Positions 1,991 to 57,253 are shown, numbered from the stretch's first letter. The stretch: 64,000 nt of DNA from Gammaproteobacteria bacterium (GCA_016195665.1 JACPZD010000001.1:282848-346847), one strand, 5' to 3'. Notes: generated from the letters alone by a model not told the origin. Translations and numbers: made by a program.

Positions 1991-2036
1991 AGACGCCACT
2001 ATAGCTTAATACGCAGACTATAGTTTAAGGAGAAAA

Positions 2037-37314: not shown

Positions 37315-38364
<1,050 letters not shown>

Positions 38365-38365
38365 G

Positions 38366-40036
38366 ATGCAGTGGCGAGCGCGGCTACTGCTACTCCTGAT
38401 CGTTACGATCGGGACCCAGGCACTCGCCGACCAACCATCCGCCGCCGCCATCGCCAGCGCCCATCCGCTCGCCACCCGGGCCGGCCATGAAGTCCTCTCC
38501 GCGGGCGGCAATGCCTTTGATGCAGCGGTCGCGGTGACGGCGGCGCTCGCCGTCGTCGAGCCGATGAGCTCCGGTCTGGGCGGCGGTGGTTTCTGGCTGC
38601 TGCACCGTGTCAGGGATGGCTTTGAAACCATGCTGGACGGGCGCGAAAAGGCCCCGCTCGCCGCGCGGCGCGACATGTACCTCGATGACAGTGGAGAAGT
38701 CGTCTCGAATCTCTCCGTGGACGGCGCGCTGGCCGCCGGCATTCCCGGCACACCTGCGGCCATCGTGCATCTCGCCCAACATTATGGAAGGCTGCCGCTC
38801 AAAAAGAGTCTCGCTCCCGCCATTAAATTTGCGCGCGCCGGCTTTGCCGTCAATGAATCGTATCGGGGCATGGCCGGTTTTCGTCTCAATGCGCTGCGTG
38901 CATCACCTGCGGCAGCCGCCGTGTTCTTGCACAACAACGAAGTCCCGGAACCCGGTTATCTCATTAAACAGCCCGACCTGGCAAAAACATTGGAGAACAT
39001 CGCAGTGCATGGCGTAAACGGATTTTACGGCGGAACTGTTGCGCAACGCTTGGTGGACGGCGTGCGCAGCGCGGGCGGCATCTGGTCACTCGATGATTTC
39101 GCCAACTATAGCGTAATGGAGCGTAAACCTGTACGCGGCAACTATCATGGGATAAAAATAACCACCGCCGCCCCGCCTTCCTCGGGCGGTGTCGCGCTGC
39201 TCACTACGCTTAATATCCTGGCAGGCTATAAATTCGACGAACTACCGGCTCTCACCCGCACGCACCTCACCCTAGAAGCCATGCGCCGCGCCTACCGTGA
39301 CCGCGCCGAGTATTTGGGTGACCCGGACTACGTCAAGGTGGACGTGGCGCAACTCACCCATCCGTTCTACGCCGCGGGCCTGCGCGCCTCCATCCGCAGC
39401 GACCGAGCCATGCCCAGCGCCAGCCTGCCGGGACAAAATCCCCTGATCCCGGCGGTTGGAGACACTACGCATTTCTCGGTGCTCGACAAAGAAGGCAATC
39501 GCGTCGCCGCGACGATGAGTATCAACTTCCCCTTCGGTTCGGGTTTTATGGCCCCCGGCACGGGTGTATTGCTAAACGATGAGATGGACGACTTTTCCGC
39601 CAAGCCGGGGGCGCCGAATGTCTACGGCCTGGTGGGCGGGGAGGCCAATGCCATTGCGCCCGGCAAACGACCGCTCTCGAGTATGACACCGACCTTTCTG
39701 GAGGATAAGCGTGGCGTGGCGATCCTCGGCACGCCCGGCGGCAGCCGGATTATCTCGATGGTTTTACTCGCCACGCTGGACCATGCAGCCGGTCATGAAC
39801 CGGAGTCCTGGGTAACTTTGCCACGGTATCACCACCAGTTTCTGCCCGATGCGGTGCAATATGAACCTGGCGCGTTTTCCAGGGAACTGGTTACGGGTCT
39901 TGAAAAGATGGGCCACACGTTAGAGCCCCTGGAACGGCCCTACGGCAACATGCAGGCGGTGTTCTGGGACCGGCGAAACAGGACCGTCAAGGCCGCCAGC
40001 GACCCGCGCGGGATAGGGCAGGCAGAGGTCCGCTAG
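38366..40036 (+). CDS. ggt: Gamma-glutamyltranspeptidase
   Basis: Signal peptide MQWRARLLLLLIVTIGTQALA. Catalytic Thr region GDTTHFSVLDKEGN and GGSRII motifs. ATG at 38366 lies right after the coaD stop. Confidence 0.85.
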   Translation: MQWRARLLLLLIVTIGTQALADQPSAAAIASAHPLATRAGHEVLSAGGNAFDAAVAVTAALAVVEPMSSGLGGGGFWLLHRVRDGFETMLDGREKAPLAARRDMYLDDSGEVVSNLSVDGALAAGIPGTPAAIVHLAQHYGRLPLKKSLAPAIKFARAGFAVNESYRGMAGFRLNALRASPAAAAVFLHNNEVPEPGYLIKQPDLAKTLENIAVHGVNGFYGGTVAQRLVDGVRSAGGIWSLDDFANYSVMERKPVRGNYHGIKITTAAPPSSGGVALLTTLNILAGYKFDELPALTRTHLTLEAMRRAYRDRAEYLGDPDYVKVDVAQLTHPFYAAGLRASIRSDRAMPSASLPGQNPLIPAVGDTTHFSVLDKEGNRVAATMSINFPFGSGFMAPGTGVLLNDEMDDFSAKPGAPNVYGLVGGEANAIAPGKRPLSSMTPTFLEDKRGVAILGTPGGSRIISMVLLATLDHAAGHEPESWVTLPRYHHQFLPDAVQYEPGAFSRELVTGLEKMGHTLEPLERPYGNMQAVFWDRRNRTVKAASDPRGIGQAEVR

Positions 40037-40128
40037 CTGCCTCGGACCACCTTGCGCCGTACCGGCGGGTTGACTATAATGGCTTTCATTTTTAGCACTT
40101 TTAACTCACATAACCGTAGGAGCCCTCC

Positions 40129-40236
40129 ATGCCTGCATCCATGATTATTCCGATCATTATTTTCGGCGGCTTTATCTTGCTTGCTATCGCGATCACCAAC
40201 GTCGCGCTGAAGAATCTCACCCCGCCCAGAAAGTAA
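40129..40236 (+). CDS. Hypothetical 35-aa single-TM microprotein
   Basis: AGGAG RBS 7 nt upstream of ATG; MPASMIIPIIIFGGFILLAIAITNVALKNLTPPRK. Lies upstream of the CcoN-C-terminal-like gene. Confidence 0.35.
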   Translation: MPASMIIPIIIFGGFILLAIAITNVALKNLTPPRK

Positions 40237-40351
40237 ATCGCGTAGGTCAGGCTGCGCAAGCCCAACCCCGCCCGTCGCGTTGCTTCGCAACGCGGCTTAT
40301 CCCTGAGCTACCGGCAGGCTAGAGCACCCCTGTCCGGTAGCTGTTGCCAAC

Positions 40352-40873
40352 ATGTCCGTAATGCACAAATCGCCCCCCCATCCACTTATAAAGTTCGTCG
40401 TGATGTCGGCCGTGTTCTTTCTTGTCGGCACCGTACACGGCGTGCTGCAGGTGATACACCCGATTCGCGTCTGGCTGGACTCCATCGGCAGCCCCTACGG
40501 CGGACCCGGCCACATGATAGACCCGCTCGCCCACGCCCATATCAACATGGTCGGCGGCGTGGTGCTGCTGGTGATGGCTGCAAGCTATTATTTACTCCCC
40601 GTGTTGTCCAACCGTCCGCTCTATTCCCTGCGGCTGGTGAATCACACCTTCTGGTGGGTCAGCCTCGGGGTGACCGGTTTTTACAGCACGCTGCTGTTCT
40701 TCGGCATCTGGGAAGGTTTTTTGTATCTCGAGCATCCCGCAAAGGTGGAAGAGGCCCATCGTTATTACCCGCCCGTCATCGCGGCGGTTTCCACCGTGAT
40801 GGGTATTGGTTTTTGGTGTTATTTCGCCAATATCTTCTTGACGGCCAGGGATATCTATAAAAGCCGTCCATGA
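40352..40873 (+). CDS. Stand-alone heme-copper oxidase subunit I C-terminal-domain-like membrane protein (paralog 1)
   Basis: 173 aa with 4-5 TM helices. HAHINMVGG...LYSLRLVNHTFWW...ANIFLTARDIY aligns to the last roughly 120 aa of CcoN 51609-53018 (HAHLALLGF...LYSLALANFHFWM...YNMYMTAREGT). That region includes the helix-X HxH heme-ligand motif. Confidence 0.6.
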   Translation: MSVMHKSPPHPLIKFVVMSAVFFLVGTVHGVLQVIHPIRVWLDSIGSPYGGPGHMIDPLAHAHINMVGGVVLLVMAASYYLLPVLSNRPLYSLRLVNHTFWWVSLGVTGFYSTLLFFGIWEGFLYLEHPAKVEEAHRYYPPVIAAVSTVMGIGFWCYFANIFLTARDIYKSRP

Positions 40874-41388
40874 GGCTTGAGTGCAACTGCCCCGGGAGCT
40901 TCCCCGGCTGGCACGATCAGGACATCAATCTAGCCGGACAACTAGTGCATACGGTGTCCGCACCGATGTTTCTACACATGCCGATGGGTTACGAACTGCA
41001 GGTAAAGCGGCAGCAGCAGACGCTGGAACGCCTCAACCTCACCGAACGCTGGCCCGGCTTGGTGCTGATGCGCACCGGCCTGTTGCGCGGAAAGCTCCTG
41101 CGGCTGCTGGAACCCGCGACCTCACCCGCGCGCGGACTGGAGTATCTTCCCAACCCTTTTCAGGTGCGCGGATTTTTACATGAGGGCGGTATCGGCAGCC
41201 TTGCACTAAGCGTGCGCCGGATGCAAAGTGCCCTGGTGCAATCGGGGAAACGGCCGCTGGAGTTGTACCTCAGTCATCTCACCTGCCCGCGCTGCGCGGC
41301 GGCGCGAGGCGGCGAAAAGATTTTATTGCTGCGCCACTGGGTGGAAAGCCCGGCGTTGCTAAAGCGGGTGAACCGGAAGGCGCGCTAG
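40870..41388 (+). CDS. Hypothetical protein (172 aa), translationally coupled to the CcoN-C-terminal-like gene
   Basis: ATGA overlap with the upstream gene; contains a CPRC motif. Family not recognised. Confidence 0.45.
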   Translation: MRLECNCPGSFPGWHDQDINLAGQLVHTVSAPMFLHMPMGYELQVKRQQQTLERLNLTERWPGLVLMRTGLLRGKLLRLLEPATSPARGLEYLPNPFQVRGFLHEGGIGSLALSVRRMQSALVQSGKRPLELYLSHLTCPRCAAARGGEKILLLRHWVESPALLKRVNRKAR

Positions 41389-41399
41389 GCGTTAGCCGT

Positions 41400-41487
41400 A
41401 ACCCGCCGAAGACGCTTCACCGCAGAGGACACGGAGGGGAAGCAAACCAGTATTTTATCGTATTCCTCCGCGTCCTCTGCGGTAAAA
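41400..41487. repeat. Palindromic MITE/REP-like element, copy 2 (family A)
   Basis: GCTTCACCGCAGAGGACACGGAGG...TTCCTCCGCGTCCTCTGCGGTAAAA. Near-perfect inverted repeat arms shared with the 13365-13480 copy, at a convergent gene junction. Confidence 0.6.
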
Positions 41488-41500
41488 ATGGCTTCTATGC

Positions 41501-41887
41501 TCAGTTTGACGTTGCCGCAGCTCGCGGCAACGGATAGCGCAACACCGTTTCATCCGCACCATGCTTAAGCCGTACCTGCAGGGTCTGCGGCCCATCCCCC
41601 ACGTTCAGCGCACGGCGGTATACCCCGGTATGGCCGTCCTGGATGGACTGCACCCACGGATCTGCGTCACTCATGCGGATAGACACCAACAGATCGTGCG
41701 CGGCGCGGCGCGGCGGGCGCGTCCCCGACACCAGAAATTCATTCATCCCCACCACCACCGGAGCTGGGCGCGTCTCCACCCCGATCACGACATCTTGCCA
41801 GCGTTGTACAGGTAACCGTGATTCATCAGTCCCGCAGGCCACGGCGCACACGGATAATAGCGCCATGACTAACGATCTTACAGCCAT
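41501..41887 (-). CDS. FixH-like periplasmic lipoprotein (CcoH/FixH-domain candidate)
   Basis: Lipobox-like LLSVCAVACG and a small periplasmic beta domain. Position downstream of ccoG. Confidence 0.4.
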   Translation of the reverse strand: MAVRSLVMALLSVCAVACGTDESRLPVQRWQDVVIGVETRPAPVVVGMNEFLVSGTRPPRRAAHDLLVSIRMSDADPWVQSIQDGHTGVYRRALNVGDGPQTLQVRLKHGADETVLRYPLPRAAATSN

Positions 41888-41905
41888 AGGGCGCGGCTAA
41901 TAGTT

Positions 41906-41966
41906 TGTTGAAAAAGGCCATCCTGGGCCTTTTTCAACACGCAAGCTGTTTTTCAACAGCCTGCTA
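41906..41966. repeat. Repeat family B hairpins (copy 2)
   Basis: GTTGAAAAAGGCC-ATCCT-GGGCCTTTTTCAAC then CACGCAAGCTGTTTTTCAACAGCCTGCTA; same units as 28979-29127. Confidence 0.5.
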
Positions 41967-42377
41967 ATCGTTTTTCTCATCGTCGTCCTTGGATTTATCA
42001 CTATCCAGTTTACCCGCACGCTTGGAGCCGTACATGTTGACCATGTAGTATACAAATGCAAATCCCGCCGCAATGTACACCAGGGCCGCGGCGAAGCCCC
42101 AGTCGAACCACGGGCGCGGATGTCCGGGACGGTCTCCCCAAAACGGAAAACTCAAACCCACGGCAATCAGCGTAACGACAACGACCACCGCGACAAACCA
42201 ATACGGGAGATTGCGCTGCGACTCGGGGATTTTCTCGACCAGCTCCCAGTCTTCCAGGCCACGCTTCATGCGGCGTTCCTCGTCCGAGGCATAACCGTAA
42301 TGATCCGGCTTCTCGACGCCCCAATCGGGGGTCCCCGGTTCACTCCCGTTTTTTTCCTCATCCTGCTGCATAGTCAT
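41964..42377 (-). CDS. Hypothetical two-TM membrane protein with acidic termini, downstream of ccoG
   Basis: Two hydrophobic helices (WFVAVVVVVTLIAVGL; AAALVYIAAGFAFVYYMV). Overlaps the ccoG stop by 4 bp. Confidence 0.45.
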   Translation of the reverse strand: MTMQQDEEKNGSEPGTPDWGVEKPDHYGYASDEERRMKRGLEDWELVEKIPESQRNLPYWFVAVVVVVTLIAVGLSFPFWGDRPGHPRPWFDWGFAAALVYIAAGFAFVYYMVNMYGSKRAGKLDSDKSKDDDEKND

Positions 42378-43723
42378 CGTCCATCGCTACTGACAAAATG
42401 CTGTACTCGATAGCTCGCGCGCCAGCCATCTTGAGCCTCTACTTTTACGACAACGGGATACAGCCCCTTGGGTAGCACTTTACCAATGTGCAGATTGAGG
42501 TCCTTGCGTCCGACCGTAGTAAAACCCATTTCACTTCCAGACAATTGATAGCTCGCCGCGGGCAGGCCTTCTACCCGCACCTTCAACAGCGCTTCTTTAT
42601 ACAGTTTGTTGGCAAGACCGATACGGTAGTCCTGTATCGTTCCCTGATTGGTGTCCGCGCGGTAAACGCTGAGGTGGTAGGGCTGATAGCTCAGCAGCCC
42701 CCACGCGAACATCGCTGCGCCCATCACCGTGAGCGGCAGGCTCCACGAAAAACGCCCGAGCAGCGTGCCGAGATTGCTCTTGAGATTACTGCCCTGTTGA
42801 ATTGCGAGTCCTACCAGCTTTGACACCTTGCGTTCGCCAAACTCGAAACTCAACAGCCCGGGCTCACCGTTGCGATATTGCAGCGAGTCGCAGGCGCTGA
42901 TACACGCACCGCAGTTGATGCAACTGTCGTAGGTGCTGGTATTGCGCGGGTCTATCTCCACGGGACACACGGTAAGACAAAAGTTGCAACTCGCGCAGCG
43001 TTCGCCGCGCGCGTCGTCACAGGCGATATGCAGCGTTTGACGGGTCTTGAAGGAGTGCTGCCAAACCCGGTAGATGCACATGAAGCGGCAAAAGAAGTAG
43101 CGCACCACGGCGATGTCCACCAGAATAATCAGCACAAACACCGTGTAAATCCAGTGCAGCGAAGAGGCGAGGCGCGCATCGTCACGCAAGGTGATGAACG
43201 ACAAAACCACGTCGGGCGGATAAAAATACAGCAGAGGGATCAAGGCGAGCAGCAGCGACCCCGCCAGAAACAGGCCGCCCAGCATCAGCCAGTTAATCCA
43301 TTTTTTCTTGCCGGCGGAAACGTGCATCAACTCGCCGGTGAGACTCACCTCGGCGCGTTTGCCCAAAAACCTCTGGGTCATGCGGTTGGCCCACTCGGAG
43401 AAGGTGTTTTGCGGACACACCCAGCCGCAGAAGGCGGTCCCAAGCGTGGAATAGGTCATAACCAGCATACTCGAAACCGCCAGCCAAAACCCCACCACGA
43501 TGAAAAAATCTGAAAACCAGATCTGCCGGTCCAGCACCACAAAGGCGCCGGCGGCGGGGTCTATGCGAAACAGACCGGTGACGGGGATCAATATGGCGGC
43601 CAGCAGCGCCCCCCACTGCACGGCGCGCCGGTAACGGCGCAAACGCACACCGTCGGAGGCGGGACGCCCTGTCTCGACCGTCACCTTGATGCGGTTTAAT
43701 GCCTGGTTGGCGCTTACACTCAT
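42374..43723 (-). CDS. ccoG: cbb3 oxidase accessory protein CcoG/FixG (polyferredoxin membrane protein)
   Basis: 5 TM helices and two ferredoxin-type motifs (CASCNFCLTVCP; CINCGACISAC) followed by an Ig-like C-terminal domain, about 450 aa. Confidence 0.85.
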   Translation of the reverse strand: MSVSANQALNRIKVTVETGRPASDGVRLRRYRRAVQWGALLAAILIPVTGLFRIDPAAGAFVVLDRQIWFSDFFIVVGFWLAVSSMLVMTYSTLGTAFCGWVCPQNTFSEWANRMTQRFLGKRAEVSLTGELMHVSAGKKKWINWLMLGGLFLAGSLLLALIPLLYFYPPDVVLSFITLRDDARLASSLHWIYTVFVLIILVDIAVVRYFFCRFMCIYRVWQHSFKTRQTLHIACDDARGERCASCNFCLTVCPVEIDPRNTSTYDSCINCGACISACDSLQYRNGEPGLLSFEFGERKVSKLVGLAIQQGSNLKSNLGTLLGRFSWSLPLTVMGAAMFAWGLLSYQPYHLSVYRADTNQGTIQDYRIGLANKLYKEALLKVRVEGLPAASYQLSGSEMGFTTVGRKDLNLHIGKVLPKGLYPVVVKVEAQDGWRASYRVQHFVSSDGR

Positions 43724-43755
43724 AGCAATGCTATTTTAACATACGCCTTAACTGC

Positions 43756-43870
43756 CAGTGAGGCGTAAGGCGTGAGGAGTGAGGTGTATAAAACCGCTTC
43801 CCTCACGCCTCACTCCTCACCCCTCACTTGTTGTAACGCCTCACTCCTCACCGGTTTTCACCCTCACTCC
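43756..43870. repeat. GGTGAGG/CCTCACC heptamer inverted tandem repeat (family C), copy 2
   Basis: GTGAGGCGTAAGGCGTGAGGAGTGAGGTG ... CCTCACGCCTCACTCCTCACCCCTCAC ... CCTCACTCCTCACC. Overlaps the 3' end of the MFS/spermidine-synthase gene. Confidence 0.6.
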
Positions 43871-46591
43871 CCTGTCGAGCGGGCTGACGGCGGTCAGTTG
43901 CGAGCGGTAGCGCTCCGCCTCGGCCGCGTTACCCGCCTCTCGTTCGAGCCGCCACAAGGCGCGCAGCGTCTCGACATGATCGGGACGCAGCTTGAGTATC
44001 GCCTGCAAGGCGGCACGCCTGTCTCTGCCCTTGGCAAGGACCTGCGGCAGCGAGGCATACATCGCATCGGCCAGCGCAAAGGCAATCCAGCGGTCACGGG
44101 GATTCGCCTCATAAGCAAGACGCAGCAACCGCGCACCCTCGTCACTGCCGCGTAGCGTCGCAAGCCAGCCGCGCGTGGCCAACTCATTTCCCGCGTAGCT
44201 GCGCTCAAACTCGGCCATATCTGACATCGCGATATGCATCTCACTCGCGGCCTGTTCCAGTGTCGGGCGTTGTCGCAGCAATTCCTCTATAATGTTTACA
44301 AGATCCATTTCTCCGCTGTAACGGGCACGGGGCAGGCTATACTCAATGCGTGGAGCCCATTCGTCTTGCACCGGGCCGGTTTCGGCGTTTATTCGCCCCC
44401 AGTAACGGCCCAGCCAGGTCCACGCGCCTTCACCGCCGGTCACCCGCGACTGTGTTTCGGTATTCATACGGTTGAGGTTGGCGAGCATGGCCGGCGCACC
44501 ACCTATCGCCTCTGTTGCGCCAACCAGCGCCAGGCGAAATCCGTCCATGAAGATCACGGCGTCCGGATACACGCGCGCGAAGCTGCGCAGCACCACGGCA
44601 AGCGACCCGGCGTCGAACTGATTGAGCGCGATCCATTGTACAAACAGACCGCCCTCATTGAGGCGTGCCTTGGCACGGGCGAACTGCTGTACCGAGAGCA
44701 GCGTGCTGTGACCGACCAGATCGGGGTGAAACAAGTCGCCGACGATGACATCGTAATGCCCGCTGCCGGCGCGCAAAAAACGCCGCGCATCATCGCGCAC
44801 GATGCGGGTAGCGGCAGCGACGCCTTGATTGAGAGGCGCAAACCAGGGCATGGCCTCTATCACCCCCTGAGACACTTCCACGGCGGTGCGTTGCAGATCC
44901 GGAAACGGCAGGGAACCGGACGCCGAGATACCCGTGCCCAAACCGAGAAACAGCACGCTGCGCGGCGCGGGGTGCAGCAACAGCGGCAGCCGCGCCTGGT
45001 TTTGCTGCACGATCACAGCGGCCTGATCGGTCGCCGCATCCATGCGCTGCATGTCGGTCAGCAAGACGCGCTGACCATCGGCGCGTTCCACGACCTGAGT
45101 GATGGAGAGCGCATCCTCGTGACGATACACGTCATGACTCCCCGCCTGCGCCTTGGGCAACAGTTTTGCAATCTCCGGTAACTCCCGCACCGGCCAACCC
45201 AATACTGCGAGTGTGAAAAATCCCGTTGCTACTACAACAGCTTTTAGAGCAGAGCCTCTGACCCACACCAGGCCGCACACCAGCAGCACCGATGCAGCGA
45301 TCAGCAGCGTGCCGGGCGCGCCGAACGCCGGGATCAACACCCCGCCTGCGAGCAGCGCGCCCAGCGCCCCGCCCAGTGCGTTGACGCCATACAACCACGC
45401 GCCGCTTTGTACTACCCACGAATCTGCGACCGAAGGGCGCTCTGACTCCCCTTCTCCCGCTGGGAGAAGGTGGCCCGAAGGGCCGGATGAGGGAGAGACC
45501 GCACAGTTCATGGACATCGTTCGCGACATCGAGGTCGTGCGGTCTCGTCCGGCGCGCGCGCTGATGAGCGGCAGCCACGCGCCCAACGCAAGGGTTACCG
45601 GCAGGGTGAGTGCGGTCAACGCGAGCCCTTGCAGGGTAAGCGCCTGGAGTAGTGAGTCAAACCGACCCTGCTCCGCCCAAGCCGAGATGATGGGCACTCC
45701 CCATAAACTGGTGACTGAAAACAGCACGGCGATGACGGGTAGGGAACTCAACCAGAACCTGTCCCTCATATACCTTGCGAGCAGGCTGCCCAAACCTATG
45801 CCGAGCAAAAATATAGCGAGGATCAGCGCCATAACATACTCGGTGCGCAGCAGAATCATGCCGAACAAGCGTATCCAAGCGATTTCCAGCATCAGAGCCG
45901 CAGCGCCCACACCTGAATAGGCCAACAAGGTTAATAAATCGGGGCGGGCGTCTGTTGTCACACCTTGCGGCGAGCTACGCGCCGGTGCGACGGTGGAGAG
46001 TAGCCCTGCTCCCAGCGCAATCAGCAGTCCTATCGACGCAACGACGTCTATCGCCTGAGCCCAGCCCCAAGCCGGTAACAGCCAAAGCGGTAACAAGGCG
46101 CCCGCGACACCGCCGCAGGTGTTCGCCCCGTAGATCTCGGCGAGTGTCAGCGGAGTGGGCGCCAAGACCTTGAGCATCAGCGGGAAGGTAACGCCCATCG
46201 CCAGAGCAGGAAGCGCCAGCACCAGCAGCGTCACCGCACCCTGCAGCAGGTACCAGCCGTTCAGGTCTAGCTGCACGGCGAGACTGCCGGCTGTGCCGTC
46301 TAGCAGACGCAGTAATTGCGGCAAGGCGAGCGCGAACAGCGCGACGCCCCCTTCCAGCACGGCAACCACGCGGAGTGGATTGCGCAACCTCAAGGATAAC
46401 CGCTCGCCCAGCACGCTCCCAAAACCGAGCCCCAGCATGAACGCCGCCACCGTAACGACGACGCCGAAGATGCTCACCCCGAATTGCACCGTCAACATGC
46501 GCGCCCACAACACTTCGTAAGCGATGCCTGTCATGCCGGAGAAGGCGTAAAGGATCAGTAAGGCCCAAGGCCAGACGCGAGTAGCACGCAT
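43841..46591 (-). CDS. Fused MFS-like membrane domain / spermidine synthase-like (PABS) domain protein with C-terminal TPR repeats
   Basis: About 12 N-terminal TM helices, a central spermidine-synthase-like Rossmann region (VLFLGLGTGISAS...VIVGDLFHPD), and a C-terminal TPR-like helical repeat region. 916 aa. Confidence 0.7.
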   Translation of the reverse strand: MRATRVWPWALLILYAFSGMTGIAYEVLWARMLTVQFGVSIFGVVVTVAAFMLGLGFGSVLGERLSLRLRNPLRVVAVLEGGVALFALALPQLLRLLDGTAGSLAVQLDLNGWYLLQGAVTLLVLALPALAMGVTFPLMLKVLAPTPLTLAEIYGANTCGGVAGALLPLWLLPAWGWAQAIDVVASIGLLIALGAGLLSTVAPARSSPQGVTTDARPDLLTLLAYSGVGAAALMLEIAWIRLFGMILLRTEYVMALILAIFLLGIGLGSLLARYMRDRFWLSSLPVIAVLFSVTSLWGVPIISAWAEQGRFDSLLQALTLQGLALTALTLPVTLALGAWLPLISARAGRDRTTSMSRTMSMNCAVSPSSGPSGHLLPAGEGESERPSVADSWVVQSGAWLYGVNALGGALGALLAGGVLIPAFGAPGTLLIAASVLLVCGLVWVRGSALKAVVVATGFFTLAVLGWPVRELPEIAKLLPKAQAGSHDVYRHEDALSITQVVERADGQRVLLTDMQRMDAATDQAAVIVQQNQARLPLLLHPAPRSVLFLGLGTGISASGSLPFPDLQRTAVEVSQGVIEAMPWFAPLNQGVAAATRIVRDDARRFLRAGSGHYDVIVGDLFHPDLVGHSTLLSVQQFARAKARLNEGGLFVQWIALNQFDAGSLAVVLRSFARVYPDAVIFMDGFRLALVGATEAIGGAPAMLANLNRMNTETQSRVTGGEGAWTWLGRYWGRINAETGPVQDEWAPRIEYSLPRARYSGEMDLVNIIEELLRQRPTLEQAASEMHIAMSDMAEFERSYAGNELATRGWLATLRGSDEGARLLRLAYEANPRDRWIAFALADAMYASLPQVLAKGRDRRAALQAILKLRPDHVETLRALWRLEREAGNAAEAERYRSQLTAVSPLDRGVRVKTGEE

Positions 46592-49694: not shown

Positions 49695-49820
49695 TTATTT
49701 TTTCTTCTTATACAGGTTAGGTGCGTAACGGTCTACGATAAAGCTGTAGAGCACTGGCACCAGCAAGGCCACTAACGTTACTCCGGCCAGAACCAGCGGC
49801 GGATTGTCCAGATCTATCAT
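49695..49820 (-). CDS. Hypothetical 41-aa single-TM microprotein
   Basis: MIDLDNPPLVLAGVTLVALLVPVLYSFIVDRYAPNLYKKKK. ATGA overlap with the upstream CcoP-like gene. Confidence 0.3.
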   Translation of the reverse strand: MIDLDNPPLVLAGVTLVALLVPVLYSFIVDRYAPNLYKKKK

Positions 49821-50503
49821 GCTACTCTCCTCTTTTGACCATGCACGCTCAACTCGGCAATCTCGGCGTCGCTCAACATGCGCTCGTTACCATGACGCGG
49901 TTGCACCGTATAGGGTGGCAGCCGCTTTACTACTATCATTACCGCCAGGCAGAAATAGATCACGTAAAAGATGTCGATAGTATATCCCTTATCCCACCAG
50001 GGCTGTTGACGCACAATGCTGCCGTCGGGACGGACATTCCCTTCAAAGTTGGCAAGGACGAGCCTATCGCCCAGAACGGTATAGTCTTCCAGAATGGCGT
50101 TTTTCGCCTGCAGGTCCTGGATGAGCGGCTTCAATACACGCAGGTCATCCATTTCTACGGGGTGTTGTATCAGTTGAGTCTTGTGCTTTGATTTACTACC
50201 CACCTCTTTGACAAGATAGTCCATGCGGGCCTGATCATTCGGCAGGGCCTGCACTTCGGGGCTATCCATCGCAGCGATATACTCCTGATAGATCGCTGCG
50301 GTAGGGCGCTGGCCCCACAAGGGAAAGGTAATAAGGTATGCGGATATGATGGTCAGCACCAGCAGATACACCACCGGCTGAGGCAGACGGTTGTTGTTCT
50401 CGGTGATGCCGCCCAGGCTTTCGGACTCCCATATCTCCATGGCGGTCTTGTTGCTTTCATCATCCGTGAGGGTACGCAGCGGGTTGTCAAATCTCCAGGC
50501 CAT
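49817..50503 (-). CDS. CcoP-like membrane anchor lacking c-type heme domains
   Basis: N-terminus (ESLGGITENNNRLPQPVVYLLVLTIISAYLITFPLW) resembles the CcoP/FixP N-terminal TM region (D-G-I-x-E-x-x-N-P-L-P). No CxxCH motif occurs anywhere in the 228 aa. Confidence 0.5.
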   Translation of the reverse strand: MAWRFDNPLRTLTDDESNKTAMEIWESESLGGITENNNRLPQPVVYLLVLTIISAYLITFPLWGQRPTAAIYQEYIAAMDSPEVQALPNDQARMDYLVKEVGSKSKHKTQLIQHPVEMDDLRVLKPLIQDLQAKNAILEDYTVLGDRLVLANFEGNVRPDGSIVRQQPWWDKGYTIDIFYVIYFCLAVMIVVKRLPPYTVQPRHGNERMLSDAEIAELSVHGQKRRVA

Positions 50504-50514
50504 GACACATCCTC

Positions 50515-51465
50515 CTACTTTAAGTTCAAGACAAAGTCTATCAAGTAACGAATCTCGCTGTTGCTCGCATAGGCGGGCACCTCGGGCGGCGTCACGCGCT
50601 CGCCACGGCGATATTCCAGAAACTCCCTGCGCCAGCCCGCATAGTTAATCTTGTTGCCGTTGGCGTCGGTCTCGCCCCACAGGTAATCAAAGCGCGGCAT
50701 GATGGAGTGCGGCTGCACCAGGCGTGGATTGAAGAAGTGCATCATCATCCACTCCTTGGAGGAGTTGCGCGAACCGACATGCAGCAGGTCGGGCGCCTTG
50801 CGGTCGGAGCCAAATGCGGTGGGTGACTCACCGTTGAAGTCGCCCAGATAAGGCGGTGCGCCGAAGTATTGGAAGTCCTGAGTCTGCTCGGGCAGTAAAG
50901 TGTGGCACCACCAGCAGCCCTCCCGCACGAAGATGACCTTGCCCGAACCGGCATAGTGGGCGTTGGCGTCACCGGCCGCGGTGAGCACCGCATCAGGCGT
51001 CCAGCCGTGGGTGACGCTGGCGTTCTCTATATAGGGGTAAGATTTACCCTCGTAGTCGCCGTTCTTAACCAGGAACACGGCGCCCTGCGTCTCGCTTGCC
51101 TCATGGATTTTACCCTGTTCAACGCTCAACTCCGCACTGCCGGCACCGAGCACCTTCGGATGCTTGATGCCGCTGGGGAAGGGTGCGCCGGGACGGAATA
51201 CGTAAGCGTACACCGGGTCCATGTCCGCGCCCGAGGCCGGGTCCTTATTCAACAAAACCTTGGTGGGTGCGGCGTGACCCCTGAGGCGCGGATCGCTGAA
51301 GCTAAAGCCGCTGTTGGCCCCGTAGGTCAATTGCTTGTCGAGCGCGAGCGCCGTAGAGCCCACCGAGAAGATGTTGAAGCTCGGCATCACCAGCGTGATG
51401 AACATGGACAAGCTGAGTGCTGCACCGAACATCACGGCGCCGATTCTATACTCTCTAAAGGCCAC
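50515..51465 (-). CDS. ccoO: cbb3-type oxidase mono-heme subunit II (CcoO/FixO-like), N-terminally extended
   Basis: GTG start with AGGGAG RBS. CWWCH heme site and the CcoO signature ...PDLLHVGSRNSSKEWMMMHFFNPRLVQPHSIMPRFDYL. 316 aa versus the usual 200-240. Confidence 0.75.
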   Translation of the reverse strand: MAFREYRIGAVMFGAALSLSMFITLVMPSFNIFSVGSTALALDKQLTYGANSGFSFSDPRLRGHAAPTKVLLNKDPASGADMDPVYAYVFRPGAPFPSGIKHPKVLGAGSAELSVEQGKIHEASETQGAVFLVKNGDYEGKSYPYIENASVTHGWTPDAVLTAAGDANAHYAGSGKVIFVREGCWWCHTLLPEQTQDFQYFGAPPYLGDFNGESPTAFGSDRKAPDLLHVGSRNSSKEWMMMHFFNPRLVQPHSIMPRFDYLWGETDANGNKINYAGWRREFLEYRRGERVTPPEVPAYASNSEIRYLIDFVLNLK

Positions 51466-51608
51466 GTCTATACTCCCTTAAGCAAATTAATTCATCTCCG
51501 CAGCTTGCTGCGGGCGCAAAGCGATGGGGTTTCCACAGGGAAGAGGCGCAGATCTTCCCTTTGGTCGCCCGCGCGTTTTTCAGACCGCGCGGAGCGAAAT
51601 CCAATTGG

Positions 51609-53018
51609 CTATCGTTCGTAGGCCAGCTCATGCACCATGCGGCCGGCCGGCACTATGGTGCCCTCACGCGCCGTCATATACATGTTATACAGCCACACGC
51701 AGTTACCGAGGAATACCAAGGTACCGCCAAACCAGCGCGCGATCATGTACGGGTGCTCGGCGACCACGATATCAATGTACGGCACCTCGTAAATCTTGCC
51801 CGCGCCCTGAATCAGGCCCGCGATGGTCATTGAGATCCAGTAGATCGAAAAGCCGATCAAAAGCATCCAGAAGTGGAAGTTGGCGAGGGCCAGGGAATAG
51901 AGCTTACGCTTCATGATCATCTGCAGGCCGTAGTACACGGCGGCCACCTCAATGAAGGTGGAGAAGCCGAGCAGTGCGAGGTGCGCGTGCGCCACGATCC
52001 AGCCGGTGCCGTGGATGTACCAGTTGATCGAGCGTGTCTGCTGGAAGCCGCCCTGCATGTTGAGCGGAATGGCGAGCAGCACGCCGGTCACCGTGAAGCG
52101 CACCTCGATGTTCTCCACGAACATGTTCCACTTGCCCTGCATGGTAAGCAGGATATTGGATACGAAGGCGATCGCAGGCACCAGGATCAGCACGCCCTCC
52201 ACCGAGGCGAATGACTTCAGCCACTCGGGCAACGGCGCGGACATCAGGTGATGCGCGGCGGGCGTGGAGTAGAAGATCACGATGGACCAGAAGTGCAAGT
52301 GGCCGATACGATGCGAGTACAGCGGGTTGCCGGTGATTTTGGGGATGGTGTAGTAGGCAATGGCCGCGGCCACGGGGGTGATCCACAAACCGAGAATGTT
52401 GTGTGCATTCCACCAGGTGAGGTAGGCCTCGGTCAGGCCGGTGAGGTGGAAGTACTCCGGCAGGTTGCCTACCAGCAACACGATCATGAGCATGAAGATT
52501 GAACCGGCGAAGAACCAGTTGGTGGTGTATATGCCCTGGGTACGGCGTTTGGCGATGGTCATCCAGACATTGAGCGACACGGGGATCAGCACGCCAAACA
52601 GCAGGATGAGATCTATGGGATAGATAAAGTCGGAGTATTCACGCCCGGAGGTCATTCCCATCCACATGGTGATCAGGCCCACAGCCAGGCCGATATTCCA
52701 GTTCATGCAGCTCCACAGCGCGAGCTTTTCCGACCACAACTTGGTATTGCCAAGCGCCGGGGTGATGTACATCATCGCGGCGGCGAAGGCCATCGAGATC
52801 CAGCCGAAGATCACCGCCATTACGTGCACCTGGCGCATCTTGCCGAAGGCGAAGTACTCATAGCCGGTTACCCAGTCGGGGAAGGCCAGCTTGGCGGCAT
52901 TGAAAGAGCCCAAACCCGTGCCTATGATAAACCAGACGATGGCCGAAAAAGAAAAGAACAGCGTCGCGGTGCCCGGCGGGATGTCTTCGCTCTTGGAAAA
53001 CAGATATTTGGTCAACAT
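51609..53018 (-). CDS. ccoN: C-family heme-copper oxidase catalytic subunit I (CcoN/FixN)
   Basis: 12 TM helices. TWWNAHNILG (helix VI), HHLMS (CuB His pair), HAHLALLG (helix X heme ligands). 469 aa. Confidence 0.85.
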   Translation of the reverse strand: MLTKYLFSKSEDIPPGTATLFFSFSAIVWFIIGTGLGSFNAAKLAFPDWVTGYEYFAFGKMRQVHVMAVIFGWISMAFAAAMMYITPALGNTKLWSEKLALWSCMNWNIGLAVGLITMWMGMTSGREYSDFIYPIDLILLFGVLIPVSLNVWMTIAKRRTQGIYTTNWFFAGSIFMLMIVLLVGNLPEYFHLTGLTEAYLTWWNAHNILGLWITPVAAAIAYYTIPKITGNPLYSHRIGHLHFWSIVIFYSTPAAHHLMSAPLPEWLKSFASVEGVLILVPAIAFVSNILLTMQGKWNMFVENIEVRFTVTGVLLAIPLNMQGGFQQTRSINWYIHGTGWIVAHAHLALLGFSTFIEVAAVYYGLQMIMKRKLYSLALANFHFWMLLIGFSIYWISMTIAGLIQGAGKIYEVPYIDIVVAEHPYMIARWFGGTLVFLGNCVWLYNMYMTAREGTIVPAGRMVHELAYER

Positions 53019-53114: not shown

Positions 53115-53273
53115 TTACTTTTTTGCCGGCATCGCGCAGCACGGCTTGATCAGCCCGCGGTTACCGACCTTGCCGCACACCTTGCAGGGGATCATCAGAT
53201 ACCATGCTAGCCACATGCTGGAGAAGGCGGCGACCATGCTAAAAACTGCGGCGATTATTGCTAAAAGACCCAT
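53115..53273 (-). CDS. Hypothetical 52-aa TM microprotein with CxxC...CC motif
   Basis: MGLLAIIAAVFSMVAAFSSMWLAWYLMIPCKVCGKVGNRGLIKPCCAMPAKK; GGAGC RBS. Immediately upstream of ccoN. Confidence 0.35.
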   Translation of the reverse strand: MGLLAIIAAVFSMVAAFSSMWLAWYLMIPCKVCGKVGNRGLIKPCCAMPAKK

Positions 53274-53339
53274 TTGCTAGCTCCGTGCGCTGTTAGTTTC
53301 GACTGCATAAATTTAGGGGTACCTTGCTGCAAGACAGCC

Positions 53340-54047: not shown

Positions 54048-54503
54048 CTACTTGTAAACCGTCAAGGCCTCTCGCACCTCTTTGAATGTCGCGGCATCTT
54101 GAAACTGTCCGCGGTGGAAGATGAATTGCCTCGGTTGGCCCAAGACGTCCTTGCCGGAAAGCCCGATGGATTTCCCTTGGGTGTCGCTGTAATAACGGAC
54201 GTCTTTGACCAGTTGCACTCTCTCGCCGTTACGCAACTCCAGGCGCACCTGCTCGCGGCTGATTTCGATCGCCACCGGGGAGGTGGGCAGCCACATCAGG
54301 CGGGTTTTAAGAATACGGTTGGCGCCCGCGATGAAGAAAAACGAGGCCATAAAAAAAAGGATATAGGCCACGGACGGGTTCTCGCCATACCCCAGCTTGA
54401 GACCGAGCAGCCCGAGCACGACGACGGTGGGCACATATAACAGCAAATCCCACAACACTCCCTGCCGGTCCTGCCGCAGGACGTAGCGGGTGACGCCGCT
54501 CAT
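54048..54503 (-). CDS. Membrane protein with bacterial PH-like (YdbS/bPH_2-like) cytoplasmic domain
   Basis: Two N-terminal TM helices followed by a roughly 80-aa beta-rich domain. Confidence 0.45.
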   Translation of the reverse strand: MSGVTRYVLRQDRQGVLWDLLLYVPTVVVLGLLGLKLGYGENPSVAYILFFMASFFFIAGANRILKTRLMWLPTSPVAIEISREQVRLELRNGERVQLVKDVRYYSDTQGKSIGLSGKDVLGQPRQFIFHRGQFQDAATFKEVREALTVYK

Positions 54504-55006
54504 CGCTTAGCGGTTGCCGCGGGGAGCACGCGGCTGAGCTGCGCCTCGAGTTCGCCATACATGACCCGTCCGGCCTGTACATAACGCACCGTCTGTTTTT
54601 GATCTATCACGTAGGTCCAGGGGTCGCCCATTATGCCGAAGGCCTTGAAGGCCTGCGGGTTTTGGTACTGGTCTATGTGCATAAACAGCACCCGCGGCTC
54701 ATACTTGCTCATCATGGCCTTGAGCATCTGGAGCTGCTGATCACAGGGCGTGCAGTGACCGGGGGTGGCGAAGGCGAGCACGATGGGCTTGCCGGTCTTG
54801 AGCGCCTGATCGAGCGAGTATTGATACATGCGCGCGTCGGGATAGCGGTAGGTGGTGATCTTGCTAAAGTCGCCGCCCACGTCGGCCAGGGTCTTGGTGG
54901 CGATCGGCGGGGCCTGCATGCCGACGCCCACCCTCGGCCCAAAGTCGCAGGCCGTCAAAAGAACTACGAGGCAGAGCGTGAAGGCTCCGTAGCGCGCGCG
55001 CATCAT
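54500..55006 (-). CDS. TlpA-like thiol:disulfide oxidoreductase (thioredoxin fold, CxxC), probable lipoprotein
   Basis: Signal/lipobox LVVLLTAC. Thioredoxin-fold active site LAFATPGHCTPC. Confidence 0.7.
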   Translation of the reverse strand: MMRARYGAFTLCLVVLLTACDFGPRVGVGMQAPPIATKTLADVGGDFSKITTYRYPDARMYQYSLDQALKTGKPIVLAFATPGHCTPCDQQLQMLKAMMSKYEPRVLFMHIDQYQNPQAFKAFGIMGDPWTYVIDQKQTVRYVQAGRVMYGELEAQLSRVLPAATAKR

Positions 55007-55530
55007 GGCTTTGCGCTCTGCGGCTCGCTCCAGCCGCGCGCGGTGCGGAACAGGTTGTAGGCCCAGATGAGGTTGGAGAGCAGCACCAAACTGCCGAACA
55101 TCCCCACCGAGATCATAAACGGACGCACGATTTTATTGACCTCGTCAATGTCCATGGTTTCGCTGGCCAGACCGCCCAAACTCCCCGCCATGACAAAGGA
55201 CAGGACCATGCCGAGCAGGCCGAAGTTGTGGACCCAAAAATGAATGTTGACCAGGCGCAGGCTATAGATGTTGCGCCGGACGATGCGCGGCACGATGTAA
55301 TACACCGCCGCGAATATCGCCATCTCGACCCAGCCCAGCAGGTTCAGGTGGCCGTGGCCGAGCATGATGAGATGGGCGTGCGGCCTGTGGTTGATGAAGT
55401 CGCGCAGTTTGGGGAGCATGCCGACCACTACGCCCCAGGAGAAGCCGATGATGCTGTAAATCACGCAGGCCGCAATAAACCATAAAATGTAACGGCGGTA
55501 CTGTGTGTCCTGGCCGAAATTCTCATTCAC
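55003..55530 (-). CDS. Stand-alone heme-copper oxidase subunit I C-terminal-domain-like membrane protein (paralog 2)
   Basis: 175 aa. HAHLIMLGHGHLNLLGW...IYSLRLVNIHFWV...LIWAYNLFRTARGW is homologous to paralog 1 and to the CcoN C-terminus. Overlaps neighbours by 4 bp on each side. Confidence 0.6.
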   Translation of the reverse strand: MNENFGQDTQYRRYILWFIAACVIYSIIGFSWGVVVGMLPKLRDFINHRPHAHLIMLGHGHLNLLGWVEMAIFAAVYYIVPRIVRRNIYSLRLVNIHFWVHNFGLLGMVLSFVMAGSLGGLASETMDIDEVNKIVRPFMISVGMFGSLVLLSNLIWAYNLFRTARGWSEPQSAKP

Positions 55531-56141
55531 GGGGAGGGCGCCTTTTCTGTCGCGTCTCCCTGTTGCCCGGGGGGTTTGGTGCGGATGTCCTGGTATTTAT
55601 CCTTCCAGCCTTCAGGGGCCCACATCTTGACCATGCTGTCTATGAATCCTGAGCTTTCCGGCGGCGGCTCGCGCGCCATAGACGAACCTTGTTCCGCCTT
55701 GAGTTCGGAGAGAAACATGGCGATGTCGTGGATGTCTGCGGAGGGAAGGGCAGTAGTGTAGCCCGCTTCTCTGCCGGGGGCGTGATCCATGGTCGTCGTT
55801 CCATAAGTCAACTCCGGCCGCCTCAGGAAATTCTCTATCCACTCCGCGCTGCGGCGCGAACCGATACCGTCCAGTACGAGGCCGTTGTTGGTGCCGTTGC
55901 GCATCGCGCGGTGGCAGGCGGTGCAATTGGCTTCGCGGAATAATTTTGAGCCGCGCAGGCCTTCCGCGGTGGAATCAAAGGAGCTGCGCGAGGTGAACAT
56001 CGGCTCCTTCATGTGGCTGCGCACGGTCTCGAGCACGATGTAACCGATCACCGCCAACACCAGAAACGCACCGAATACGGCAAACAGCACGCGTTCGCCG
56101 GGTTTGAGGGATTGTTTAGGCTTCGTCGTAGGCAGTGTCAC
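55527..56141 (-). CDS. Membrane-anchored mono-heme c-type cytochrome
   Basis: TM helix VLFAVFGAFLVLAVIGYIV and one CTACH motif. Confidence 0.7.
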   Translation of the reverse strand: MTLPTTKPKQSLKPGERVLFAVFGAFLVLAVIGYIVLETVRSHMKEPMFTSRSSFDSTAEGLRGSKLFREANCTACHRAMRNGTNNGLVLDGIGSRRSAEWIENFLRRPELTYGTTTMDHAPGREAGYTTALPSADIHDIAMFLSELKAEQGSSMAREPPPESSGFIDSMVKMWAPEGWKDKYQDIRTKPPGQQGDATEKAPSP

Positions 56142-56165
56142 GGTTAACCTTGCACATCGGCAGGT

Positions 56166-56203
56166 AGAAAAACAAAAGGGCGGGGATGTTTCCCCCGCCC
56201 TTA
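56166..56203 (-). terminator. Intrinsic terminator after the diheme cytochrome c gene
   Basis: Hairpin AAGGGCGGGG-ATGTTT-CCCCGCCCTT followed on the minus strand by TTTTGTTTTT. Confidence 0.55.
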
Positions 56204-56266
56204 TGGGACTTGCGTCCCTACAACAAGTTCAAAAACTCAACTCTAAGGCGAACGCGCTTTCAGCGG

Positions 56267-57253
56267 CTATTCGTGCGCGGCGCCGGCGGTATTCGGCGGT
56301 ATTTGGTGAGGCTGACGCGAATTGCCCATGGAGATAGGCGGCGCGCTGGTCAGGTAGGCGGCGACATTGTAAATGTCTTCATCCTTGAGCTTGCTCGCCA
56401 CGGCGCGCATCTGCGCCAGCGGGTCGTTGGCGCGGCTGCCATCCTTCCATTTCTTCAACTGATTTACCAGATAGACGTAACGCTGTCCGCCGATGACGGG
56501 GTAGATCGGCAGGGCACCGCGCCCGTTGAACTGGTGGCAGCTGCTGCAGGCCGGTACGCCTTGGGCCGGAATACCATAGAGCACGATGCCCTTTCCGAGA
56601 TGACGCTCACCGACCGGTACGGTGCCGGCCGTCTTGATCTCGTCCAGATTAGAGGCCGAGGCGAGCGCATCGTGATGCACGCTGGACTCATAGGCGGCGA
56701 TGTCGGCCTTGTCCTGATCGGAGAGGGCCTTGGCGACACCGTTCATGACACCCATGGTGGTGTCGGTCCGGAGGTCTGCGGCGAACTCATAGAGCTGCTT
56801 TCTGATGTAAGTAAAGCCTTGGCCGGCCAACCGGGGGGTACCCATATTGTCATCGCCCAGACCTTGCTCACCGTGGCAGGACATGCAGGGCGGGGCCTCG
56901 CCTTTCCCTTCGTTGAAGATCTTTTTCCCGGCCTCGAAATTACCGACCAGCCTGAGCGCCTCGCCCGGCATGGGCATAGGAGGCGGAGTGGCGGGGGCTA
57001 CGACCTCCGGTGGGGTGGGGGTTGCCATGGCCTCCGGATTTTCCGCGGGGACGGGGGGGGCTACTACCGCCGGAGCGGGCGCAATTTCACCCGCCGGGGC
57101 CGAACCGGCGGATTCCGGGGCTGCCGGTGCTTGCTCAACGGCCGGGGCAGACGTGACGCCCGGATCTTCTGACCAAGCTTGATTTGCCGCGACCAAGGCC
57201 AAGGCCGCAAGCGATGCCTTAATTAACCGACGCATAATGAATCCTTCCTCCAT
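56267..57253 (-). CDS. Diheme cytochrome c4-like protein with Pro/Ala-rich linker
   Basis: Signal peptide; two heme sites CMSCH and CSSCH; low-complexity PAPA-rich N-terminal linker. Confidence 0.8.
   Translation of the reverse strand: MEEGFIMRRLIKASLAALALVAANQAWSEDPGVTSAPAVEQAPAAPESAGSAPAGEIAPAPAVVAPPVPAENPEAMATPTPPEVVAPATPPPMPMPGEALRLVGNFEAGKKIFNEGKGEAPPCMSCHGEQGLGDDNMGTPRLAGQGFTYIRKQLYEFAADLRTDTTMGVMNGVAKALSDQDKADIAAYESSVHHDALASASNLDEIKTAGTVPVGERHLGKGIVLYGIPAQGVPACSSCHQFNGRGALPIYPVIGGQRYVYLVNQLKKWKDGSRANDPLAQMRAVASKLKDEDIYNVAAYLTSAPPISMGNSRQPHQIPPNTAGAAHE

Follow-up and report, generated by a model that had tools for sequence, protein, structure and literature searches.

What does a membrane protein do that resembles only part of subunit I of a respiratory oxidase? 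This question is raised by a 64,000-nucleotide stretch of gammaproteobacterial DNA (GCA_016195665.1 JACPZD010000001.1:282848-346847; its whole length is called the window here), in which a gene for a 173-aa protein with motifs of CcoN, the subunit I of cbb3-type oxidases, sits in a compact module with two other genes. The original prediction, made from the DNA sequence, held that the protein matches only the last four helices of CcoN and named a haem-binding assembly factor, a sensor and a split oxidase component as possible roles. Our analyses confirmed the observation behind this prediction and supported its interpretation in part.

A four-helix relative of CcoN in a three-gene module

The module consists of three open reading frames, all confirmed at the positions at which they had been predicted (Table 1). 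The first, encoding a 35-aa microprotein, has the expected ribosome-binding site (GGAG, 8 nt ahead of the ATG), and the ATGA overlap between the second and third, read directly from the sequence, bears out their proposed translational coupling. A consensus promoter scanner made no call at the promoter-like site preceding the microprotein gene because the -35 hexamer matches at only three of six positions. The two hairpins located between the microprotein gene and the 173-aa gene were rejected as a known RNA element, since an Rfam search of 40276..40342 returned no family match. The inverted repeat beyond the partner gene is a possible bidirectional terminator; it lacks a T-tract and is thus not called an intrinsic terminator. 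Purifying selection acts on all three module genes, with dN/dS values of 0.08-0.15 for the 173-aa gene (against eight orthologues), 0.15-0.20 for the 172-aa partner gene and 0.09-0.41 for the microprotein gene.

Table 1. Features of the module and of the surrounding window, with positions counted from the first nucleotide of the window
Feature	Position	Strand	Remarks
Promoter-like site	40053..40080	+	TTGCGC, 17-nt spacer, TATAAT; read from the sequence; about 50 nt 5' of the microprotein start
35-aa single-TM microprotein gene	40129..40236	+	First gene of the module; ORF with GGAG ribosome-binding site
Two hairpins	40276-40294, 40306-40342	+	Between microprotein gene and 173-aa gene; perfect inverted repeats of 8 and 9 nt
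173-aa single-repeat (four-TM) haem-copper-oxidase-like protein, subtype A	40352..40873	+	Homology, fold, selection
172-aa cytoplasmic GyrI-like/SOUL-fold protein, Cys4 (C5, C7, C139, C142)	40870..41388	+	ATGA overlap
22-nt inverted repeat	41416..41486		Between partner gene and convergent p128; 91% complementary, 27-nt loop
Convergent block	41501..46591	-	p128 lipoprotein-like, p137 (two TM), CcoG-like, 916-aa protein; conserved beside the pair
CcoG-like polyferredoxin	42374-43723	-	Member of convergent block
916-aa fused membrane/spermidine-synthase-like protein	43841-46591	-	Member of convergent block
Divergent C-family oxidase operon	49817..53018	-	CcoN, CcoO-like, FixP_N-like; family matches
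FixP_N-like	49817-50503	-	Oxidase operon
CcoO-like	50515-51465	-	Oxidase operon
CcoN	51609-53018	-	Oxidase operon
Paralog-2 operon	54048..57253	-	Gene order as Tenderia ALP51722-51726 and locus L089
151-aa membrane protein	54048-54503	-	Paralog-2 operon
Thioredoxin-fold lipoprotein	54500-55006	-	Paralog-2 operon
175-aa single-repeat protein (paralog 2)	55003-55530	-	Paralog-2 operon; second stand-alone homologue
TM-anchored monoheme cytochrome c	55527-56141	-	Paralog-2 operon
Diheme cytochrome c	56267-57253	-	Paralog-2 operon

By BLASTP, residues 59-167 of the 173-aa protein align with residues 342-452 of the CcoN encoded in the window (E 2e-10, 28% identity), and all three motif pairs quoted in the original prediction fall within this alignment; weaker matches involve CcoN residues 219-252 and 14-99. 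The ccoN gene used as reference is present where it was predicted, with its strand corrected to minus. The Pfam COX1 profile (PF00115) matches the protein with 38.5 bits at model positions 307-411 of 436, above the gathering cut-off of 34.8 bits and hence not in an unrelated family, and TIGR00780 (ccoN) matches with 48.9 bits (E 4.4e-13) at positions 300-456 of 474, below its CcoN equivalog cut-off of 583 bits. A profile of the family finds solved CcoN with an E value of 2e-17, and the AF2 model of the 173-aa protein (pLDDT 84.5, four long helices) has CcoN chains as its best solved-structure matches (TM 0.74-0.77, query-normalised). On the basis of these matches, an unrelated membrane protein with chance motifs was rejected.

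The 173-aa protein is, therefore, a true homologue of haem-copper oxidase subunit I that lacks the CuB ligands. It is homologous in sequence and fold to CcoN helices IX-XII and shares with them the H-x-H of helix X, the only part of the six canonical subunit I histidines that it keeps. As the original prediction had stated, the helix II His (low-spin haem) and the CuB His triad of helix VI and the helix VII HH are missing; so is the cross-linked Tyr, and the protein has four helices in place of the twelve that form the core of subunit I, whereas the CcoN of the window retains all six canonical His and the Tyr. Without CuB ligands, the 173-aa protein is not an oxidase.

Relatives are numerous. 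A word-indexed search returned at least 968 clusters at E <= 0.001; the best 120 range from 156 to 214 aa in length and from 60 to 94% in identity. A relative is encoded in at least 407 species-representative genomes, mostly of uncultured Gammaproteobacteria (with Chromatiales and Ectothiorhodospiraceae labels) and Zetaproteobacteria. The proposal that this is not a standard annotated family holds insofar as neither Pfam nor NCBIfam has a dedicated family for it; it does not hold insofar as the proteins are annotated automatically, their source name being "cbb3-type cytochrome c oxidase subunit I", and appear as "truncated CcoN" in a 2022 preprint that is discussed below. Among 119 sequences of the subtype to which the 173-aa protein belongs (subtype A), H29 is conserved in 100%, H54 in 97%, H98 in 94% and H136 in 98%, and a four-residue SPYG insertion gives rise to a near-invariant periplasmic loop, DSIGSPYGGPGHMIDP. 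These extra histidines and the loop are missing from triple-repeat relatives (see below) and from single-repeat subtypes with Gln or Trp at position 29, and could possibly form an additional metal site or a docking surface. Judging from helix positions in the AF2 model, five histidines (H29, H54, H61, H63 and H136) face the periplasmic half of the protein, and H98 is placed where TM3 reaches the cytoplasm.

Because the protein covers only about one third of subunit I, it might be suspected of being a functionless, decayed fragment of a duplicated ccoN. We consider this extremely improbable and rejected a decayed fragment or pseudogene on conservation, a dN/dS of about 0.1 and expression in Tenderia: length is conserved, at 167-187 aa, across the at least 968 clusters, the partners are conserved as well, and the flanks of the gene contain no ccoN remnants and no further repeats. 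In "Candidatus Tenderia electrophaga", the corresponding pair Tel_00520/Tel_00515, which also has a 4-nt overlap, is transcribed on the biocathode with logCPM values of about 8.2-8.4 (PMC5371394, supplement).

Triple-repeat relatives and a paired pattern of histidines

An exhaustive HMMER search with the family profile against 1.84 billion representatives yielded 1128 proteins at E <= 0.001, among them 47 at E <= 1e-30. The best-scoring matches were not 170-aa proteins; they were proteins of 625-1122 aa with three matched stretches. These triple-repeat proteins (typically about 650-730 aa), found mostly in Chloroflexota and in a few Verrucomicrobiota, each consist of three tandem full-length copies of the four-helix unit. 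With a profile built from the single-repeat family only, the repeats of 123 triple-repeat proteins scored on average 106, 116 and 60 bits, whereas the three repeats of the window CcoN scored 8, 20 and 33 bits. That each triple-protein repeat exceeds 50 bits is a measure of relatedness and does not make the 173-aa protein, which has a single repeat, a member of the three-repeat group.

The claim that the protein corresponds to the last four helices of CcoN needs revision in the light of this comparison. The triple-repeat proteins score far above CcoN, which argues against a specific correspondence to the CcoN C-terminus, and the family profile finds each of the three repeats in solved CcoN (at residues 11-152, 170-247 and 306-465), which fits a single repeat unit. 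The profile comparisons thus identify the 173-aa protein as a single copy of the four-helix unit that is present three times in subunit I, and the near-symmetric triple-repeat proteins, not CcoN, as its nearest relatives. Each of their repeats is homologous over its full length to the 173-aa protein, which is 40% identical to repeat 2. They share with it both the annotation "cbb3-type cytochrome c oxidase subunit I" and the linkage to one CcoN/CcoO subfamily. They differ in that their three repeats, which have diverged, are joined in a single polypeptide with only four of the six ligand histidines, in having Gln at position 29, and in lacking the SPYG loop, H98 and H136 as well as a GyrI-like partner.

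As seen in the P. stutzeri cbb3 structure, CcoN holds haem b with two histidines, one on helix II and the other the second His of the HxH on helix X; the first His of that motif is the ligand of haem b3. The helix II His of the window CcoN falls in the column of the repeat's first His when aligned with hmmalign, but in a profile alignment to P. stutzeri CcoN the helix II His comes two residues before that column; because the alignments conflict, we regard the equivalence of the two positions as probable rather than certain. Among the 123 triple-repeat proteins, the first ligand position of helix 2 is variable in R1 (His in 35%) and the second is His in 100%; both are His in 100% in R2; and R3 has His in 100% at the first position and Gln in 98% at the second. 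Two inter-repeat pairs (R1 second with R2 first, R2 second with R3 first) are therefore intact, and the third is gone on both sides. This is the pattern predicted for a two-haem protein by an interface rule under which one haem would be held jointly by repeat i, through its second His, and by repeat i+1, through its first. In the stand-alone family, both histidines of H61-x-H63 on helix 2 are 100% conserved, so that a homotrimer would offer three such sites.

Position 29, a His in stand-alone subtype A, is Gln in 100% of R2 and R3 and aligns in the profile alignment with the helix IX Glu of P. stutzeri CcoN; for these reasons, it is more likely a second-sphere residue than a ligand. The 2010 paper on the P. 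stutzeri structure reportedly describes a hydrogen bond from this Glu to the proximal His. Positive charges at the N-terminus, in the TM2-TM3 loop and at the C-terminus, read from the sequence, indicate that both ends of the four-TM unit are cytoplasmic, and tandem fusion and parallel oligomerisation are consequently topologically equivalent.

We infer, tentatively, that the 173-aa protein is a non-catalytic, oligomeric and probably trimeric haem b membrane protein that serves a divergent cbb3-type system, a reading that we prefer while giving it less than an even chance. Within the membrane, copies of the protein would associate, most likely in threes, to rebuild the 12-helix ring. The invariant H61-x-H63 would bind b-type haem where two subunits meet, close to the periplasmic face, one subunit's second His and its neighbour's first His ligating the haem, as helices II and X of CcoN do for haem b. 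Its placement among b-type cytochromes draws on the invariant histidines and the paired ligand pattern and is provisional to that extent. As a small cytochrome of the membrane, the protein would then assist electron transfer in a divergent cbb3-type oxidase system of iron oxidisers and electroautotrophs. It would have two dedicated partners, the 35-aa TM peptide and a cytoplasmic protein that combines a GyrI/SOUL fold with a Cys4 metal site. The interfacial-haem model leaves four further conserved histidines and the unique loop of subtype A unexplained; the extra cluster of H29, H54 and H136 might be a separate metal site beside the haem.

Partners, genomic contexts and the oxidase link

The proposal of a dedicated module, with a conserved microprotein and a coupled Cys-rich protein, is upheld by comparison across genomes. 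In 75 of 84 loci, the next gene downstream of the 173-aa gene belongs to PF20603 (several of the other loci are on truncated contigs), and the commonest junction between the two is a 4-nt overlap (41 of 71). Of 82 loci, 45 have an upstream ORF of 30-41 aa with a single TM segment, a ribosome-binding site and a shared (I/L)(V/I)PI..F motif, and 44 of these 45 also have the partner gene. The partner is restricted to subtype A of the single-repeat family and is absent from the contexts of triple-repeat proteins and other single-repeat subtypes.

The 172-aa partner, which is 100% identical to a Gammaproteobacteria MAG protein (locus tag HY028_01645), reaches the PF20603 gathering score and has the duplicated beta-alpha-beta-beta fold; its AF2 model (pLDDT 90.6) is GyrI-like. 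It has neither a signal peptide nor a TM segment and is therefore cytoplasmic. Invariant in its family are C5, C7, C139 and C142 (CxC...CPxC), together with W14, P38, W61, P62 and R155. The best fold matches were the C-terminal domain of EcmrR (13.8), the Lin2189 hydrolase (12.3), CtaZ (11.6), human SOUL (10.9), mouse p22HBP (10.5) and SbmC/GyrI (10.3); the match to Lin2189 probably accounts for the Pfam name "Bact_hydrolase". By sequence, the partner has no solved-structure match, no NCBIfam match and only database names that read "hypothetical", and we therefore rejected its being an enzyme or regulator already known by sequence; a literature search on PF20603 found nothing. It differs from GyrI-like and SOUL (HEBP) domains in its invariant Cys4 site, and we know of no precedent for an invariant Cys4 in SOUL proteins.

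The modelled fold is compatible with tetrapyrrole binding, which falls short of proof, and for a SOUL-fold partner in the cytoplasm haem handling is no less fitting a function than electron transfer. The main rival to our preferred reading, in our view an unlikely one, is haem insertion or assembly, the role that the original prediction had put first: the partner would pass haem b to the 173-aa protein and from there to nascent CcoN, whose helices IX-XII the 173-aa protein would mimic, and the CcoG-like block would supply Cu(I). Several observations speak against it. GyrI-like domains bind many ligands, and the top fold matches are drug-binding regulators and a hydrolase; the invariant Cys4 is without known precedent among SOUL proteins; triple-repeat and other single-repeat relatives do without the partner and are still in oxidase operons; partner-less copies of subtype A retain every conserved His; and the pair also occurs far from oxidase genes.

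Three genomic contexts of subtype A were distinguished. The convergent block adjoins the pair in 47-50 of 84 loci (about 56%), Zetaproteobacteria included, and no full-length CcoN was found within 6 kb in these convergent-block loci. In the second context, the pair stands alone beside rpmE, SNase, malic enzyme and DEAD-helicase genes. The third, represented by seven loci, has a partner-less copy divergent from a LysR regulator, with hibernation-factor and Bax-inhibitor-1 genes next to it. Since the module occurs away from oxidase genes and partner-less copies exist, the oxidase link is not obligatory for subtype A, and a role as a dedicated CcoN chaperone is not required either.

The LysR-linked loci with their neighbouring genes, and the four extra conserved histidines and invariant periplasmic loop of subtype A, speak for a stress-linked sensor or scavenger, a small membrane haem or metal protein that would bind O2, NO or peroxide, or a metal ion through the extra His cluster, independently of the oxidase. 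We consider such a role improbable: no signalling domain or output partner is present, 75 of 84 loci carry the GyrI-like partner, and about 56% are beside the CcoG-like block.

The genetic tie of the protein to a cbb3-type oxidase, implied by the original prediction, was supported. In three genomes, the triple-repeat gene is the last of an operon that opens with genes for CcoN and a CcoO-like cytochrome, followed by several small proteins, and other single-repeat subtypes, with Gln at position 29, lie within CcoN/CcoO/FixP_N operons. One of these (locus L089) has the order diheme cytochrome c, monoheme cytochrome c, single-repeat protein, 72-aa protein, CcoN, FixO, FixP_N; with a thioredoxin-like gene further along, it is a compact version of the paralog-2 arrangement of the window. 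The window CcoN is 58-61% identical to the CcoNs encoded in the same operons as single-repeat genes at L089 and a second locus, L088, and 34-38% identical to those from triple-repeat (Chloroflexota-type) operons. Beyond CcoN, CcoO and the repeat proteins, no small proteins common to the Chloroflexota operons and the window were detected. Repeat-unit proteins of different phyla thus accompany one divergent C-family oxidase subfamily, to which the window CcoN belongs.

The second paralog, whose existence the label "paralog 1" had implied, is indeed present in the window (Table 1). Its gene comes after that for a membrane-anchored cytochrome c, and its product is nearer to the true CcoN C-terminus than to the triple-repeat family. 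That one oxidase operon of the window has a different single-repeat paralog on each side, and that linkage to CcoN/CcoO recurs in several phyla, could also mean that the 173-aa protein is a supernumerary or structural subunit which docks on CcoN or pairs with paralog 2 and has no cofactor of its own. This, too, appears improbable, because ligand histidines and a position 29 that are 100% conserved, and the paired loss of ligands in fused relatives, are hard to explain without a cofactor, and because of the monocistronic LysR-linked copies.

A conserved block of about 30 genes has been described in Tenderiales (bioRxiv 10.1101/2022.05.06.490989), and its published gene order corresponds to that of the window between about 57.3 and 40.1 kb, read in descending direction. 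The matching order has a diheme cytochrome, a monoheme cytochrome, a "truncated CcoN", a thioredoxin, CcoN and CcoO; after further genes, a monoheme cytochrome among them, come a ~35-aa single-TM protein, CcoG and a second "truncated CcoN" (10.1101/2022.05.06.490989). The same preprint gives the name "truncated CcoN" to the counterparts of both window paralogs (ALP51744.1/Tel_00520 and ALP51724.1/Tel_00415), remarks on ~35-aa single-TM proteins in the region and proposes that the block encodes "a sort of alternative complex IV". The 173-aa gene shares with the Tenderiales paralog 1 a product of ~170 aa, the 4-nt overlap, the convergent CcoG-like block and the cbb3-1/cbb3-2 region, and its partner is 50% identical to its orthologue Tel_00515; orthology of the 173-aa protein to ALP51744.1 rests on partner orthology and gene order. 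The Tenderia orthologues of the convergent block, Tel_00495 to Tel_00510, respond to electrode potential. The Tenderiales proteins belong to the same family, and the preprint contains no analysis of repeats, ligands, partner fold or fused relatives. "Truncated CcoN" was not found elsewhere in the literature searched, and Emerson 2013 and Kato 2015 do not mention the single-repeat fragments. Thus, the genes had already been noticed and annotated automatically, but not analysed.

A single unit among repeat folds

The pseudo-threefold symmetry of subunit I in haem-copper oxidases and NO reductases has long been known. The literature that we searched describes neither a free-standing single unit nor a near-symmetric triple-repeat relative of these enzymes, and, as far as we searched, the single-repeat nature of the 173-aa protein, its fused relatives and the paired-ligand pattern have not been reported. 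The window carries two single-unit genes, and database searches add a fused three-unit family that obeys a simple interface ligand rule.

A further view, which we hold to be doubtful but worth stating, is that the 173-aa protein represents the haem-copper oxidase fold in a single-repeat form that still exists today, a homotrimer with three interfacial bis-His haems, and that the triple-repeat proteins and the oxidases are successive stages that followed gene triplication. The Chloroflexota triple-repeat proteins, with two haems, would be one such stage, and the canonical oxidases, with a bis-His haem and an opened haem/CuB site, another. If this were true, the family would offer a tractable model for the origin of the respiratory oxidase/NO-reductase fold. 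If haem is bound as predicted, the protein would provide a direct experimental handle on the assembly of the oxidase fold, and an uncharacterised part of the highly expressed "alternative complex IV" of iron- and electrode-oxidising bacteria would have been identified. If no haem is bound, there would still be a large mis-annotated family, with thousands of "cbb3-type subunit I" entries that are unable to be oxidases.

The proposed arrangement bears an analogy, not a homology, to that of SemiSWEET and SWEET proteins, which are unrelated in fold and function to the proteins described here. SemiSWEET is a stand-alone, part-size unit that oligomerises into the fold that its relatives encode as internal repeats. 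Similarly, subunits of the 173-aa protein may assemble into a ring of helices that the triple-repeat proteins, and CcoN itself, form from a single polypeptide.

The full-length oxidase subunit and its surroundings

The full-length CcoN encoded in the window contains all six ligand histidines and the tyrosine, and it scores only 235 bits against TIGR00780, for which the cut-off is 583. Because it is 58-61% identical to CcoN proteins that share operons with single-repeat genes, it belongs to a divergent subgroup of the C family, the one represented in the "complex IV" region of Tenderia. Small unnamed genes also occur in the Tenderia region at the place equivalent to that of the three small membrane ORFs beside the window's CcoN gene. 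The counterpart of the FGE-sulfatase domain protein is labelled a serine/threonine kinase in the Tenderia papers. The gene for the 916-aa protein adjoins a CcoG-like gene in about 40 of the 84 related loci, a conserved arrangement. The gamma-glutamyltranspeptidase gene lies directly upstream in 23 of the 84, an adjacency to the module (the microprotein, 173-aa protein and partner genes) that probably reflects synteny rather than a functional link.

Features of the window and of related database loci
Feature	Location	Strand	Remarks
Gamma-glutamyltranspeptidase gene	38255-40036	+	directly upstream of module
916-aa protein, spermidine-synthase-like domain	43841-46591	-	matches NF037959 (fused MFS/spermidine synthase) with a score slightly over the cut-off
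FGE-sulfatase (formylglycine-generating-enzyme-like) domain protein	47281-48333	-	within oxidase region
Monoheme cytochrome c	48347-48835		adjoins FGE-sulfatase domain gene
Full-length CcoN	51609-53018	-	
Three small membrane ORFs	53115-53946	-, -, +	52, 97 and 66 aa, respectively; between CcoN and paralog-2 operon
Paralog-2 operon	54048-57253	-	five genes
Single-repeat gene, 203 aa	locus L091, region 12-2252		Gln29 type; downstream of DUF420 gene
Triple-repeat genes	L085, 6001-7974; L086, 6001-8190; L087, 6001-8019		
Triple-repeat proteins	P0241-P0268, P0391-P0497		

Other single-repeat and triple-repeat contexts

Copies of the 173-aa subtype that lack the partner gene were found at seven loci (L022, L031, L035, L055, L063, L065 and L075), where they and a LysR-type regulator gene are divergently transcribed, and where genes for a hibernation factor (S30AE) and Bax-inhibitor-1 lie downstream of them. 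The partner-less copy at L065 and the partnered copy at L042 come from the same MAG; some genomes therefore contain two copies of the subtype. The single-repeat gene at L091 overlaps a 119-aa ORF by 4 nt, which suggests that the ORF may encode a different dedicated partner; the neighbouring DUF420 is the CtaM family, which in Bacillus is associated with maturation of the aa3 oxidase.

The triple-repeat family (~650-730 aa, with some members reaching 1100 aa; mostly Chloroflexota) consists of proteins named "cbb3-type subunit I" that are composed of three similar four-helix repeats without CuB ligands, and for which the oxidase-subunit label is almost certainly a mis-annotation. At each of the three tabulated loci, the triple-repeat gene closes a CcoN-CcoO operon.

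The paralog-2 operon

The operon containing the window's second single-repeat protein (paralog 2, 175 aa), which has HGH where the 173-aa protein has HAH, also encodes a diheme cytochrome c, a TM-anchored monoheme cytochrome c, a thioredoxin-fold lipoprotein with a CTPC motif, and a 151-aa membrane protein. The diheme cytochrome is probably a member of the Cyc1/c4 type, which has been considered in connection with iron oxidisers. The gene order, a cytochrome c gene followed by a haem-copper-oxidase unit, is similar to that of norC-norB.
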